Shown here: positions 1,900 through 21,603 of the stretch, one piece after another
Layout: each line of letters starts with the position of its first letter
Position numbering within the stretch: the first letter of the stretch is position 1
IMG/VR virus record: IMGVR_UViG_2778261381_000006
Span: 1 to 24,768 of that record
Source: a virus
Taxonomy: Duplodnaviria > Heunggongvirae > Uroviricota > Caudoviricetes
Length of the DNA: 24,768 nucleotides
Strand: one strand, 5' to 3'
Program-made: the position numbers and the translations under genes
The notes under the pieces: generated by a model
Told to the model about the DNA's origin: nothing
Seen by the model: only the letters and a program-made list of their open reading frames with translations
The model's database searches: none

Positions 1900-2016
1900 G
1901 TGTTTCTCCTTGTTGTGATTTGGCCGATGGCGCTATGCGCGTTGGGCTTTCGTTCATTCGTGGCTCTTTCGAGCTGTTAAATGATAGATCAGTACTTACT
2001 TATTATCTATCAAAAA

Positions 2017-2448
2017 TCAACGGGGAGTAATAAAGCGTTCAGAGCCTAATCGCTCTAATTCAACGATGGCCATCTTTGACGCCTGAACGATCATGTCTCG
2101 GCGATGCGAAAAGGCGGCGACAGCATGTTTGTATATGTCTGCGATGTGCCGTGCTTCATCCAACTTCTGCCGTTTAGACAGATACTGTGGGTTTGTTTTA
2201 ACCTTAGCGTCCAGTACAGACTCGTTGAACTTAATGCCGTTCATACTCAAGTTCTTACGCTCTGTGTCGTATAGCTTTGCTTCAACAGCTTCAAGGTTAA
2301 GTTTTGCCTCTGCGACATCTCGATCTGCCTGCGCTAGTTTTGACCCATACTCCATTAAAAGCCGTGGCTGTTTACGCCATACTTCCTCAAGGTTGTCGCG
2401 GTCGAACTCCAGATCGGCCATGATTTTAGAAAAAATATCAGTGTTCAC
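2017..2448 (-). CDS. Hypothetical protein (143 aa), coiled-coil rich; possibly a recombination mediator by position next to SSB
   Basis: Clean ORF co-oriented with SSB and FEN; no recognisable catalytic motif. The UvsY-like idea rests on size and neighbourhood only. Confidence 0.5.
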   Translation of the reverse strand: MNTDIFSKIMADLEFDRDNLEEVWRKQPRLLMEYGSKLAQADRDVAEAKLNLEAVEAKLYDTERKNLSMNGIKFNESVLDAKVKTNPQYLSKRQKLDEARHIADIYKHAVAAFSHRRDMIVQASKMAIVELERLGSERFITPR

Positions 2449-2657
2449 TCTAATAGGTTCCTACTTATAAAATCTGTATCAATTATATCAAACAGAGAAC
2501 GGGTTTATGGCGTCATGTCAACTTTGTTCAGGGGAAAAATATTGAGATCACCGAAGATAATTAGTTGTCTTATTTTGGTAAGCTGTGCTGACCATCTTTA
2601 GGTCACATACATGAGATGGATGGGGGTGTGGCATGAACGGATGAAATTCAGTCGCCG

Positions 2658-2686
2658 TTGACAGATGTCAACACTGTGAATAGAAT
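2658..2686 (+). promoter_or_regulatory. Sigma70-type promoter with an operator-like palindrome over the -35
   Basis: TTGACA (2658-2663), 17-bp spacer, TAGAAT (2681-2686). TTGACA-ga-TGTCAA palindrome at 2658-2671. GGAGG RBS then ATG at 2704. Confidence 0.6.
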
Positions 2687-2703
2687 ACTATTATCGGAGG
2701 CGA

Positions 2704-2928
2704 ATGAAGCAACATCCGAATAAGCATATTCAAGCAGCCATTGACTATGCATTAAGTAAAGGCTGGATCTGGGTAGCAGCTGGTGGTGCTGCACATTGTT
2801 TTTGCAGACTGCGATGCGGTAATCCAGAAGGTGAACACAAAACTCACCAAATGAGCGTATGGTCGACTCCGGGTAATCCCGAAAACCATGCCAAACAGAT
2901 CAAACGAATGGTTGATCGTTGTAAATGA
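2704..2928 (+). CDS. Small HicA-like protein (74 aa), putative toxin of a two-gene module
   Basis: Pattern GW...GG.AH.F.R...G......H.MSVWSTP..NHAKQIKRMV resembles the HicA/YcfA fold signature as I recall it. Consensus promoter and RBS. The assignment is tentative. Confidence 0.45.
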   Translation: MKQHPNKHIQAAIDYALSKGWIWVAAGGAAHCFCRLRCGNPEGEHKTHQMSVWSTPGNPENHAKQIKRMVDRCK

Positions 2929-2988
2929 TTTCAAGGCGGCATTAGCCGCCTTTTGCAGAAACTGTCCAACTATCTTCAAAGGAAAACT

Positions 2989-18678: not shown

Positions 18679-18838
18679 CCTTAATCTCCTTCACTGTGTG
18701 GGTTATTTCTACAATGCGATAAATACGACCGCGTCGTTCTATAACACCGCTTTTAATGTAGTCATTGATGCAACTGGACATCACCACAATACCGATTAAA
18801 AAAACCAACCGCTAAAAATGCAATCATCCAGCCGAGCA

Positions 18839-20161
18839 TCATTCTTTATCTCCGATTCGATCTTCTGTATCGCGTAAGCAACGCGGCCATTTCAGTCGTG
18901 GGTGGCGTAAGCTGCCGTCCGGTGTTTTCTCGTGACAATGAACCTCAACAATACGACCACGGTACTTCTCTTTGTTGTTCCAGATCTCGTCCAGATATTT
19001 ATGCTTAATGCCGCTCGCACGAACAATCACACCGTTTTCAAGGCGAATAACAATTTTTCCAAGCGTGTTGGCAAAACCAGAGTCCGGGTCGCCCGACTCA
19101 AAGTCGATAATTTCACCATCTTCTGAATCTTCGTCTTTTAACTTCCACCAGCTGCGGGTACGTTTAAACTCGTAAACAGAGTTCGGATCTTTGCCCATCT
19201 CCCCTTCTTCGTTATCGTCAAGGCGTTTCATGAAGCGTTCGATGAAGTCTTCGTGGCTATGGATGATATAGAACGGATGCAGGTGAATGTCTTGTGTGTA
19301 GCCTTCACTGCGATCGTTTTTGAACAACGCCACGAGAATAGCCAGGCGCTCTTTCAGCTTCATACCTGTCTTTGCATACTCTTTGGATTTAGCCTGTGCC
19401 CGCCATTCCGGTAGGAAGAAGTCGAAAACATGATAAATAGCGCCAATTGCCTGCACGTTCTTTTTGCGCAATGCAGATACGGACTGGTTAAATGAACCGG
19501 CTGTTCCTTCACCATCGAAGAAGATGTGTTTGTGGCCTGAAAGTTTGCCTAATTCGAGCATTGCTGGCTTTAGGTGATCGAGAGACGTGATTGGATTACC
19601 AGTACGAGAAAGGAAGTTAACCTCTTCCTCGTCAACAATAACCTCGCAAATTACTCGCAAACCATCGAGCTTAAGACTGCCAATCATCGGCCATTTTGCT
19701 TTAGGGTTTGGCTTGAAGGGGTATTTGTCGCCTTTTTCTTTATACGGTGACGCCAGCTGCACCTCGAATTTCGGAATGGGATTTTCAAAAACCTTGTTGC
19801 ATAGGCTAATCCCAACACCCGCTTTCGGGTCTTTTAAGAGGAAACGACGGAACACGTCCTGCCCATCGGCGCACATTGACGCCACGATAGACTCAACAGC
19901 AGCTATTGCTGCGTTCCCCGTCAGCTCGCGAGAGGCCAGCTTATTCAGTACATCAATGGCTTTTTCGTCACTTGGGACGGACTCACTAAGCGGCTCTGCC
20001 ACTTTGTATTTCTTTACCCCAAAACGGATGAAAGGGTTGAGCATCAATGAAACCATGCTTTGTTCAAAGTCATCCATGTTGGCCAATGCCTCTTTTTTTG
20101 CATTGGTTCCCATAGCTTTCATTTCGTCCAGCTTATGCTTAAGTGCGATCAACTTTTTCAT
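18839..20161 (-). CDS. ATP-dependent DNA ligase
   Basis: Nucleotidyltransferase motifs: KLDGLR (motif I, adenylated Lys), FFDGE (III), EGEMGK (IV), WWKLK (V), and a C-terminal OB-like region ending RHPRL. Confidence 0.85.
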   Translation of the reverse strand: MKKLIALKHKLDEMKAMGTNAKKEALANMDDFEQSMVSLMLNPFIRFGVKKYKVAEPLSESVPSDEKAIDVLNKLASRELTGNAAIAAVESIVASMCADGQDVFRRFLLKDPKAGVGISLCNKVFENPIPKFEVQLASPYKEKGDKYPFKPNPKAKWPMIGSLKLDGLRVICEVIVDEEEVNFLSRTGNPITSLDHLKPAMLELGKLSGHKHIFFDGEGTAGSFNQSVSALRKKNVQAIGAIYHVFDFFLPEWRAQAKSKEYAKTGMKLKERLAILVALFKNDRSEGYTQDIHLHPFYIIHSHEDFIERFMKRLDDNEEGEMGKDPNSVYEFKRTRSWWKLKDEDSEDGEIIDFESGDPDSGFANTLGKIVIRLENGVIVRASGIKHKYLDEIWNNKEKYRGRIVEVHCHEKTPDGSLRHPRLKWPRCLRDTEDRIGDKE

Positions 20162-20628
20162 TGTTGTTTTGCCTCCATATGTTGATCGATTTGCTCATGT
20201 GTTTCTTTTGTTGTTTCTTCAATCAACGCCGCATACACGTCAGTGATCGCTGTTTGTGATGTGGCGCTCTTCTTAACCATGCTATTAATCGTTACACTGT
20301 CACGTTTTCGTTTTATAGTTCTGGCTTGTTTATTCCGTTCTTCAACCTCCTTAATGAGTGCGGTCATATCTTCGAAATACAGAGATTCTCCTTTACGAAT
20401 CTCTTCAACCATCATTTTTAACGCCTTGCATTTGCCTGCTTTAATAGCGGTTGCGCACGACTGGAAAGACGTTCGAGGAAGACGGTTTTCTTTGAAGGCA
20501 AGAATGGTGTGCTGGCAAACGGAGTAGCTGCAATATGCCGACTCACCGTTTATCTTTACTTCCTCACAACGAAGTGAATAACCGTTATTTCCTGAAATAG
20601 AAGGGACTTTTGACAAATCAGCTTTCAC
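20158..20628 (-). CDS. Hypothetical protein (156 aa), Cys-containing N-terminus
   Basis: ORF whose stop overlaps the ligase start (ATGA coupling). GGTAAG-type motifs lie 35 and 70 nt upstream. Confidence 0.5.
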   Translation of the reverse strand: MKADLSKVPSISGNNGYSLRCEEVKINGESAYCSYSVCQHTILAFKENRLPRTSFQSCATAIKAGKCKALKMMVEEIRKGESLYFEDMTALIKEVEERNKQARTIKRKRDSVTINSMVKKSATSQTAITDVYAALIEETTKETHEQIDQHMEAKQQ

Positions 20629-20695
20629 AATTACCGCCAGAAATAATCTTGTGCTTACCTATCATTATTTGCGTAAAAAACGACACACAGAGAGC

Positions 20696-21478
20696 TTACC
20701 AACTTCCCCAGCTAATCATCTTGCGCTGATCGCTTTCTAAGCGATAGGGGGCAAGAAGCTCTGTGACATGATTGGTGGCGTATGATTTGGCCTCTTGCTC
20801 TATCATCGGTAATTCGTTAGCAATCCTGACCATCTTCCCAGCAAATTCCGCCATTACGCCATCACACGCCTTACCCGCATCAACAATGATATGCACAAGA
20901 TCCAACTGGCTTTTGCACATGTCCCAAAGAGTCGAATATTCGCTCTCCCTGATTAGGTTTACAGCATCATTAGCCCCTTTATTAATCAAAACCTCCAACA
21001 GATTTGTCGGGGTGACGAAATCGGCTTTCAGAGACAATGTTGGTTCAGCTTTTACCGACAGCAAGTAATCTTCAAAGTTTTGCTTGTCTTCCAGCAAAGC
21101 TAAACTACGCATAGCTCGAATTGATTCTCGAATAACGGCTTCAATATGTTCGTCACCTGGAGGACAGATAATGGTATCTGTATAGATGACTCTGCCATCA
21201 AACCACGCCCCAACCTGCACTTTTAGAGTTCGTAAGTTTTCTTTGCGTACAAAAACAACTAATGCAGAACGTCGTGCATGTGCAGGTTCGCCCCATACGC
21301 ACAACTTAACCTTCAGATAAGGTAGCCCCGGTAGAGGGATCTCGACCAAACGAGTGGCGATATGATCCATTGCCGTATTGACGGCTTTTTCAATGATGTC
21401 TAGCCGATTGCTCTCGCTGATTTCTAAACCAGTTTTATCAATGATGTTGCAGGCTAATCTCTTAATTTCTTCTTTCAT
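20696..21478 (-). CDS. Hypothetical protein (260 aa)
   Basis: Clean ORF with GGAG RBS; no recognisable motif. Confidence 0.55.
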   Translation of the reverse strand: MKEEIKRLACNIIDKTGLEISESNRLDIIEKAVNTAMDHIATRLVEIPLPGLPYLKVKLCVWGEPAHARRSALVVFVRKENLRTLKVQVGAWFDGRVIYTDTIICPPGDEHIEAVIRESIRAMRSLALLEDKQNFEDYLLSVKAEPTLSLKADFVTPTNLLEVLINKGANDAVNLIRESEYSTLWDMCKSQLDLVHIIVDAGKACDGVMAEFAGKMVRIANELPMIEQEAKSYATNHVTELLAPYRLESDQRKMISWGSW

Positions 21479-21603
21479 ACCAACTCCTAGCTAACGGATG
21501 AAAGTATTCTTACAAAAACTTAAGTATGTATCTACTTATCATTTTAGGTGCAATAGTTCTTTATACTAAGATGCCGGGCATATCCTCAGCCCAGCATTCA
21601 CCT

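Follow-up and report, generated by a model that had tools for sequence, protein, structure and literature searches.

The stretch of DNA analysed here, positions 1 to 24,768 of IMG/VR virus record IMGVR_UViG_2778261381_000006 (hereafter the window), is, judged by sequence identity, part of a phage-plasmid of the SSU5/pHCM2 family. It is 97% identical to Escherichia phage Cyrano (pLF82) across 79% of its length; identity is ∼80% with Salmonella phage SSU5 and ∼78% with Klebsiella phage-plasmids. Here, we show that a 20-bp inverted repeat, ATARGTAA-N4-TTACYTAT, recurs in the intergenic DNA of these elements, with a conserved GTAA/TTAC core and a free centre. In Cyrano, a phage-plasmid of roughly 108 kb, the site is repeated about 25 times, nearly always in the short gaps before lytic genes. 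We propose that these repeats most probably serve as the operators of a phage-plasmid immunity system that has not been characterised before. That the element is bound by a dimeric protein is highly likely. For the full model, in which a 128-aa XRE-type protein would act as repressor at operators dispersed over weak host-type lytic promoters and would also regulate its own gene, we estimate a probability of about 0.55.

A 20-bp inverted repeat in the intergenic DNA

When hexamers were ranked without any prior assumption, the commonest one in the intergenic DNA of the window was TAAGTA/TACTTA, which is found 17 times in 4,163 intergenic bases and eight times in ∼20,600 bases of coding DNA. An earlier note on this DNA had described a recurrent, mostly intergenic motif of the GGTAAGTA type, and these counts bear out both the recurrence and the intergenic bias. 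Enrichment against shuffled intergenic sequence had been set beforehand as the test that could refute the motif, and the motif passed it, since dinucleotide-preserving shuffles of the intergenic DNA gave a mean of 3.5 and a largest count of 10 in 300 shuffles. GGTAAGTA itself is present in five copies in the window against 0.44 expected. The same hexamer tops the intergenic hexamers of the relatives, in stretches of 43-50 kb, with intergenic and coding counts of 25/13 in Cyrano, 23/11 in SSU5 and 22/14 in the Klebsiella element pJN2-26.

The true unit is larger than the one originally described. While the recurrence and the inverted pairs stand, GGTAAGTA is only one arm of a 20-bp palindrome whose full consensus is ATAAGTAA-GTAC-TTACTTAT, with the core GTAA-N4-TTAC. 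The spacing of the arms was tested without assuming symmetry, using 164 unique strong half-sites from four genomes and accepting an inverted partner that matched at least 7 of 8 positions. There were 21 partners at a spacer of 4, five at a spacer of 0, and none or one at each of the other spacers from 1 to 12; the minor peaks at spacers 0 and 8 arise from the (TAAG)n periodicity of the arm. Taking TAAGTA as the unit gives apparent spacers of -2, +2 and +6, which would suggest independent promoters and speak against a site for a dimer, but the partner-spacing analysis shows these to be register artefacts of the 8+4+8 geometry. The spacing appears to vary because the arm has a 4-nt periodicity. 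A fixed arm spacing, with 4 as its only strong peak, conserved arms and a variable centre are features of the operators of dimeric helix-turn-helix proteins.

With a full site defined by no more than three mismatches in the 16 specified positions (at least 13/16), the window holds seven sites where 0.23 are expected; against shuffles of the intergenic DNA only, the count is six versus 0.19. Counts for the whole of Cyrano come from a mismatch-tolerant pattern search of its three segments, which gave 13, 10 and 2 sites, or 25 against a total of ∼1.05 expected. As many as 22 of the 25 are intergenic, while intergenic DNA makes up only 14% of the genome (p = 2e-16).

Fourteen places in the window had been listed as carrying the motif or its complement. 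Seven of them lie in palindromes, and about five (2575, 11875, 11945, 14195 and 15563) are lone half-sites of uncertain meaning; for those at ∼11876 and ∼11945, no inverted partner is present. The other two do not belong to the motif: 13619-13628 lies within a LexA box, and 16487-16499 is not matched by the motif. A further TAAGTA, at 3808, falls within a cspA-type 5' untranslated region (UTR) thermoregulator recognised by Rfam and is unrelated to the palindromes. Next to the palindrome before the CobS-like gene there is a weak second match (9377-9396), and the site before the 156-aa gene has a strong upstream and a weak downstream arm.

Conservation of the sites in relatives is seen at the level of individual positions. 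Orthologous sites are common to the lineages of E. coli, Salmonella and Klebsiella, and their distance from the start codon hardly varies; they precede the genes for the gp32-like single-stranded DNA-binding protein (SSB), CobS, the 260-aa and 156-aa proteins, ribonucleotide reductase (RNR), SbcD, the holin and the tail fibre, the tRNA leader, and others. The site block before the SSB gene, GTAAGTAAGTACTGATCTAT, is kept in Cyrano, SSU5 and pJN2-26, and so is the site at 17997-18016, at the same place. Where CobS is only 53-59% identical, as in elements of the Klebsiella grimontii type and of Moellerella and Xenorhabdus, the motif is retained with slight drift (e.g. GTAGGTAT-ttac-ATACTTAT).

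The CobS site was compared across 80 IMG/VR loci, which gave 55 distinct upstream sequences and 18 distinct 20-mers. Among these 20-mers, the left arm ATAAGTAA is near-invariant and TTAC is found in 17 of 18, while the central four bases occur in seven versions (CTAC, CCAC, TCAC, TTAC, GCAC, CTAG and CTGC). Position 17 can be any of the four bases (T, G, C or A), and its would-be pairing partner stays A. To judge from these sequences, such a pattern of variation is the probable footprint of a protein dimer.

Placement of the sites and expression in the lysogen

The palindromes of the window end 14-84 nt from the start codon, so the original description of sites lying 40-100 nt upstream of it is only roughly right; in the relatives, several sites end only 1-14 nt from the start codon and the Shine-Dalgarno sequence follows directly. 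Such sites leave no room for an activator at -30 or -41, and they have to overlap the -10/+1 region or lie in the leader.

In Cyrano, sites precede genes of early type (SSB, CobS, RNR, ThyX, Dam, SbcD and a ParB-like gene) as well as late genes (terS, portal, the gene after the capsid gene, a tail protein gene, the M|L junction, the tail fibre gene and the holin gene). The units that bear sites thus include those of replication, recombination and nucleotide metabolism together with head, tail and lysis genes. One Cyrano site is placed between the stop codon of the capsid gene and a strong intrinsic terminator 6 nt downstream. Given this site, and sites at both early and late genes, a global silencer fits better than a promoter class.

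Promoter elements were predicted by a consensus scan, which gave no excess of consensus sigma-70 promoters in the window (17 versus 19.5 expected, and 17 versus 26.8). At the sites, two arrangements were recognised. In one, the palindrome spans -8 to +12 and the -10 hexamer ends at its second base, so that four flanking bases and the first AT of the palindrome make up nAnnAT, the only canonical -10 reading at the sites; predicted examples are TATAAT at the ParB-like gene, TTGCCA-16-CAAAAT at Dam and the promoter of the 128-aa gene, whose predicted -10 hexamer TAATAT abuts the palindrome at 12054-12073. In the other, the palindrome occupies the spacer between the -35 and -10 elements, as in the predicted promoters TTGAAA-17-TATCAT before the membrane-protein gene CYRAN_56, outside the window, and TAGATA-17-TATCAT before the SSB gene. 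In the sense orientation, the likeness to a -10 element at that offset and to a -35 element 16-18 bp upstream is modestly above that in the antisense orientation. Operators typically vary in where they lie on the core promoter, unlike promoter elements or activator sites. A fixed -10 hexamer downstream of the palindrome (centre at +18, seen at CobS, the 260-aa gene and the tRNA leader) was considered and rejected, as it fails at the SSB, holin and tail genes and is impossible where a site abuts the Shine-Dalgarno sequence. The hicAB genes have a near-consensus sigma-70 promoter, TTGACA-17-TAGAAT (2658-2686), and no palindrome, consistent with expression in the lysogen.

Expression was re-analysed from a study of strain LF82 (PMC9928086, S1 table), which gives per-gene RNA-seq of Cyrano in LB, culture medium and macrophages. 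Of the 18 Cyrano genes expressed in the lysogen, none is directly preceded by a site with three or fewer mismatches, compared with 23 of the 105 others (Fisher p = 0.023). These 18 genes include toxin-antitoxin pairs, parA, repA, morons and the repressor gene, the last of which has only a weaker copy of the site (12/16). Expression in the lysogen is lowest for genes that a site immediately precedes (p = 0.007).

In macrophages at 6 h, comparison of adjacent co-directional genes placed four of the larger step-ups in expression exactly at sites, before CYRAN_60 (+3.65 log2), CYRAN_56 (+3.6), CYRAN_12 (+2.5) and CYRAN_34 (+2.4). The sites therefore coincide with promoters. Step-ups larger than these are found only at junctions without a site, mostly beside lysogeny-expressed genes. 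CYRAN_34, the orthologue of the 260-aa gene of the window, has a TAAAAT hexamer at its site and is expressed in the lysogen ∼4-fold above its upstream neighbour, which implies that the host polymerase can use that promoter. Between CYRAN_30 and CYRAN_31, which have two sites between them, expression falls 64-fold.

Candidate repressor and alternative readings

Two helix-turn-helix proteins, encoded at 12102 and 2989, had been suggested as binders of the motif. The second has to be dropped, as it is the HicB antitoxin and no site is near the hicAB promoter. The first, the 128-aa protein, is the only classical repressor candidate in the conserved core, and on sequence grounds it is a plausible binder of the palindromes. 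It has a weak Pfam match to HTH_19, belongs to PHROG 8 (transcriptional regulator) and is homologous to CYRAN_45, annotated as a putative repressor. Its AlphaFold2 model (mean pLDDT 72) has an XRE-type helical fold, and the best Foldseek matches of the model are the dimeric operator binders C.BclI, C.AhdI, HigA, SinR, 434 repressor and Stl. Homologues are confined to elements of ∼100-116 kb of the SSU5 family, across Enterobacteriaceae, and orthologues of 38-58% identity in distant relatives (L091-L093) keep the same order of int, repressor, small gene, CobT, CobS and DnaE. A segment GY..NN(L/I)S(L/M)(I/L)KSGK is near constant down to 38% identity while the rest of the protein diverges; it includes the putative recognition helix, and its constancy would match that of the DNA motif. 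Co-variation of repressor and motif was also sought in the distant relatives, where both helix and motif are conserved to 38% identity and no discriminating change is found.

In the Cyrano lysogen, the repressor gene is expressed 10-fold above background (PMC9928086). The weaker palindrome on its predicted promoter would be an autoregulatory site; it is kept in pJN2-26, as ATCGGTAA-gtac-TTACCATA, and in L091-L093, where sites lie 43-72 nt before the repressor gene.

The 70-aa gene that diverges from the repressor gene encodes a protein of PHROG 2627, and its synteny is also kept in L091-L093. It may be a Cro-like protein or an antirepressor, and its Cyrano homologue is induced ∼90-fold in macrophages (PMC9928086). 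No match was found in PDB sequence searches with this protein or with a 71-aa protein encoded at 18463-18678. Between the 70-aa gene and CobT there is a hairpin, CTGCGCGAA...TTCGCGCAG (11575-11610), which is kept in all four genomes compared; LF82 RNA-seq drops ∼30-fold at the homologous point, from CYRAN_46 to CYRAN_47, and the hairpin may be a terminator or attenuator that lacks a T-run.

The integrase gene (int), convergent with the repressor gene, is preceded by a perfect LexA (SOS) box, identical in Cyrano. At the same stringency, this box was not found in SSU5 or pJN2-26. In macrophages, int is induced ∼25-fold, and the Cyrano homologues of int, the repressor gene and the 70-aa gene rise together (10.3, 9.9 and 10.8 log2) with a drop before CobT (PMC9928086). 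A transcript from the LexA-controlled promoter would cross int, then the repressor gene in antisense, and so reach the 70-aa gene; it may be the route of SOS induction.

We propose the following model. In the plasmid-prophage state, a dimer of the 128-aa XRE-type repressor would bind the palindromes, each of which would overlap a weak sigma-70 promoter either across -8 to +12 or in the -35/-10 spacer. The bound repressor would block initiation and, at sites inside operons, may also act as a roadblock, while the weaker copy on the repressor's own promoter would provide negative autoregulation. On loss of the repressor, for which the LexA-controlled int transcript described above, antisense to the repressor gene, is a possible route, all units would fire. 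A set of repressor operators was one of two readings offered in the earlier note, and it is the one favoured by the palindromic geometry, by the sites at early and late lytic genes, by the want of sites with three or fewer mismatches before lysogeny-expressed genes and by the copy on the promoter of the gene at 12102.

Several points weigh against this model. The promoter elements are consensus guesses in AT-rich DNA, where several -10 hexamers can be drawn at most sites, and the Foldseek matches of the predicted fold are weak (E of 5e-3 or worse). There are other small putative DNA binders in the family, among them the 71-aa protein and CYRAN_123. SSU5 lacks the block of 70-aa gene, repressor gene and int yet keeps good sites; its sites give no support to the model and are compatible with a recent deletion, which fits SSU5 as a repressor-less lytic derivative. 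If the weak site of the repressor gene is counted, 1 of the 18 lysogeny-expressed genes has a site and significance is lost (p = 0.19), and over all junctions the expression steps with and without sites show no significant overall difference. The expression data cannot separate genes that are repressed from genes that lack an activator. Moreover, the sites have a direction, in that the upstream arm in the sense orientation is the better one in 12 of 15 gene groups, with three the reverse (p = 0.035), and A is enriched three bases upstream of the palindrome; such directionality would equally suit a promoter element.

Phage-specific positive control is a possible explanation of this kind, which we hold to be rather unlikely. 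The upstream arm, (R)ATAAGTA(A), would be a promoter core or the palindrome a dimeric activator site, and the genes would be silent in the lysogen for want of a phage factor that works with host RNA polymerase, not through repression. The T4 late promoter is TATAAATA, and ATAAGTA is one base off its core, ATAAATA. The phage has T4-like gp32, UvsY and UvsW genes, and the many sites 1-14 nt from a start codon and its Shine-Dalgarno sequence resemble the short leaders of T4 late genes. The better conserved upstream arm, the lack of enrichment of consensus sigma-70 promoters and the step-ups exactly at several sites are also on this side. In the plasmid-prophage P1, 11 late promoters are marked by a 9-bp inverted repeat bound by Lpa (PMC10695390), and here too an inverted repeat marks many promoters of a plasmid-prophage. 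However, the P1 repeat is found only at late promoters and replaces the -35 element at a fixed position, whereas the present sites stand before early and late genes, at varying positions and often too near the start codon for an upstream activator. An element recognised by a sigma factor has no use for two-fold symmetry around a free 4-bp centre, and the occurrence of the same element at early replication genes and late structural genes defines no temporal class. One copy would fire into the intrinsic terminator behind the capsid gene, another sits on the promoter of the lysogeny-expressed repressor gene, and the site-bearing CYRAN_34 is already transcribed in the lysogen. Finally, a Pfam search of 40 hypothetical proteins of Cyrano and 10 proteins of the window detected neither a sigma factor or RNA polymerase nor any known late activator.

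It is less probable still that the palindromes are themselves promoters, two-fold symmetric and used by host RNA polymerase with a phage-plasmid factor, or that they act chiefly as genome-wide roadblocks ('stoperators') in a Gram-negative plasmid-prophage; both ways, register-shifted binding would be possible through the 4-nt periodicity of the (TAAG)n arms. A function at the level of DNA other than transcription, as sites for a ParB-like or nucleoid-structuring protein or as junctions for the exchange of modules and morons, is improbable. In its favour, two proteins with ParB domains are encoded in the family, half-sites resembling the motif lie on either side of the moron block (14100-15700), and the sites are spread over the whole replicon. 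But the location of 22 of 25 sites in intergenic DNA next to start codons is unexpected for centromere or structural sites, the plasmid-maintenance region has none, the sites are at orthologous positions instead of mosaic breakpoints, and they correlate with silent genes.

The earlier note had also read TGG-TAAGTA as an extended -10 promoter. What stands of this is that the sites coincide with promoter regions; that they are plain host sigma-70 promoters with no dedicated binder, with TGG or TGA and TAAGTA forming TGn and the -10 hexamer, is very improbable. TG does precede TAAGTA at several sites (e.g. on the minus strand at 9395, 14193 and 21540), and position and orientation before genes are as expected. 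Nevertheless, TAAGTA has A at the required T(-7), the T of the expected TG at -15/-14 is not conserved and the flank is RR (A/G), the AGTA part is conserved far beyond real -10 hexamers, an inverted partner at fixed spacing has no explanation in an asymmetric element, and the genes behind the sites are silent in the lysogen. An RNA element can be given hardly any credence. An 8-bp stem with a 4-nt loop near the Shine-Dalgarno sequence, possible on paper, could be a translational operator, a processing site or a stabiliser. Yet complementarity in the 18 CobS variants is limited to the inner four pairs, with pairs 1-3 left unpaired in 16-17 of them, and position 17 takes any base with no compensatory change in its partner. 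From site to site, the R of position 4 and the Y of position 17 also change independently of each other. The lack of covariation in the 18 distinct 20-mers largely refutes an RNA hairpin; the conserved thing is the sequence of the arms, not their pairing.

Features of the window and parallels in other phages

The sites and the main genes are listed in Table 1. Most genes of the window are on the minus strand, and the rest of its content comprises a glutaredoxin gene (minus), two morons, a small-gene cluster, genes for a ligase, the 156-aa and 260-aa proteins and a primase, and four tRNA genes.

Table 1. Positions of sites, signals and genes in the window (gene names from the Cyrano annotation and the open reading frame list; sites are written arm-centre-arm)
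Feature	Positions	Strand	Sequence	Remark
Palindrome before gp32-like SSB gene	1984-2003	minus (sense)	ATAAGTAA-gtac-TGATCTAT	end 84 nt from ATG
Palindrome before CobS-like gene	9394-9413		ATAAGTAA-ctac-TTACCATA (sense)	end 58 nt from ATG
Two lone half-sites	11876-11952	plus (∼11876); minus (∼11945)	TATGGTAAGG; ACAGGTAAGA	switch region between 70-aa gene and repressor gene
Predicted sigma-70 promoter of repressor gene	12028-12055	plus	TTTACA-16-TAATAT	consensus scan
Weaker palindrome at predicted repressor-gene promoter	12054-12073		ATCGGTAA-gcac-TTACCAGA	12/16, weak right arm; end 28 nt from ATG
LexA (SOS) box	13612-13631		CACTGTATAAGTAAACAGTA	CTGT-N8-ACAG; 25 nt before int ATG
Palindrome between glutaredoxin gene (minus) and low-GC moron (plus)	14100-14119		ATAGGTAA-gtaa-AAACCTAT	
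Best palindrome of the window	17997-18016		ATAAGTAA-gtaa-ATACTTAT	15/16; just 3' of 96-aa gene, heads non-coding and tRNA region
Site before 156-aa gene	20643-20662		ATAGGTAA-gcac-AAGATTAT (sense)	end 14 nt from start codon
Palindrome before 260-aa gene	21520-21539		ATAAGTAG-atac-ATACTTAA (sense)	end 41 nt from ATG
gp32-like SSB gene	871-1899	minus		
UvsY gene	2017-2448			
HicAB genes	2704-3552	plus		
Cold-shock gene	3882-4097			
DnaE gene	4401-7919			
CobS-like gene	8100-9335	minus		
CobT-like gene	9431-11539			
70-aa gene	11638-11850	minus		divergent from repressor gene; heads leftward CobT-CobS-DnaE gene string
XRE-type helix-turn-helix (repressor) gene, 128 aa	12102-12488	plus		homologue of CYRAN_45
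Integrase gene (int)	12483-13586			convergent with repressor gene

Some further features of this DNA are recorded here in their own right. The leader of the SSB gene (1900-1983, ∼85 nt), with a GC-rich hairpin at ∼1928-1944, is kept across the E. coli, Salmonella and Klebsiella lineages and recalls the translational operator of T4 gene 32. Rfam identifies a full-length cspA thermoregulator (186 bits) at 3704-4122, covering the 5' UTR and coding region of the phage-borne cold-shock gene. The low-GC open reading frame at 14182-15510 (442 aa, ∼31% GC) has no Pfam match and stands where Cyrano has CYRAN_43, a moron expressed at a very high level; translation may in fact begin at the second ATG of the frame (14215), downstream of a GAGAG Shine-Dalgarno sequence. 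A lipoprotein moron (15762-16316) is bracketed by a 29-nt direct repeat, CGAAGCCyCTTTrAATTTTGCGCTGAAAA (15523-15551 and 16444-16472), with an inverted copy at 15578-15591. The half-site at 15563 is in the loop of a 14-bp inverted repeat, TTTTGCGCTGAAAA/TTTTCAGCGCATAA, and these repeats may be the scar of a cassette insertion.

Four long stem-loops with arms of 20-26 nt are found among and beyond the tRNA genes (16530-16607, 16892-16992, 17502-17623 and 17695-17783), three of which have the common arm start CACA(G/A/T)(C/T)GTTGAG; they could be processing or termination signals. From tRNA-Asn to the palindrome at 17997 there is ∼750 nt of non-coding DNA. In Cyrano, the site at ∼31175 (L006 37755-37774, outside the window) lies within a longer AT-rich palindrome, CTTCTGTATATA...ATATATACAGAAG, beside the parA-relE operon, which could be an origin or a centromere-like structure.

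In function, the closest parallels of the proposed system would be the dispersed C1 operators of P1 and the gp71 operator/'stoperator' system of L5 and the Cluster A mycobacteriophages, a subject dealt with in PMC6550527. P1 C1 operators are asymmetric 17-mers, ATTGCTCTAATAAATTT. As in P1, a plasmid-prophage would here be controlled by one repressor acting on many operators scattered over the genome, each overlapping a lytic promoter; the 25 Cyrano sites, 22 of them intergenic and at early and late genes, have the dispersed layout of P1 operators at lytic promoters. In both, strong paired sites are mixed with single sites, and the operator is conserved family-wide because a new specificity would need all sites to change. 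The differences are a symmetric 20-mer instead of asymmetric 17-mers, and a 128-aa XRE-type candidate unrelated to the 283-aa protein of P1. No sequence or protein homology to the P1 C1 system was found, so that by analogy the system would work like the C1 operators without being a member of the P1 system.

Stoperators of L5 are asymmetric 13-mers in one orientation. The likeness to them lies in some two dozen sites in short gaps between co-directional genes of early and late operons, including some where no promoter is needed (terL|portal, the region of the capsid-gene terminator and M|L), which suggests blocking of read-through transcription; the 64-fold drop from CYRAN_30 to CYRAN_31 is compatible with such a roadblock. 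In contrast to stoperators, the present sites are symmetric, and several coincide with step-ups and behave as promoters; the host and the repressor family also differ. With lambdoid phages, 434 and P22, the system would share the XRE-type fold (a model here), palindromic operators with conserved arms and variable centre, and a repressor gene divergent from an early lytic gene, the two being separated by several sites, with predicted autoregulation. Their operators, however, are in two or three clusters in the immunity region and not genome-wide, and the 128-aa protein has no S24 self-cleavage domain and would use a 20-bp operator with a 4-nt periodic (TAAG)n arm.

SSU5-type phage-plasmids, such as pHCM2, pLF82/Cyrano and many Klebsiella, Salmonella and Cronobacter elements, are widespread and are carriers of resistance genes. 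Their silence in the plasmid state and their lytic switch are essentially undescribed, and in the searchable literature we found no description of the motif or of regulation in the SSU5 family. The operator consensus and the candidate repressor provide a map of ∼25 regulated units together with a predicted entry point for SOS induction through the LexA-controlled int transcript. If the model is true, the family would be a second, independent case of the dispersed-operator immunity of P1, which would suggest that this layout is a general answer to the problem of silencing a large plasmid-prophage.

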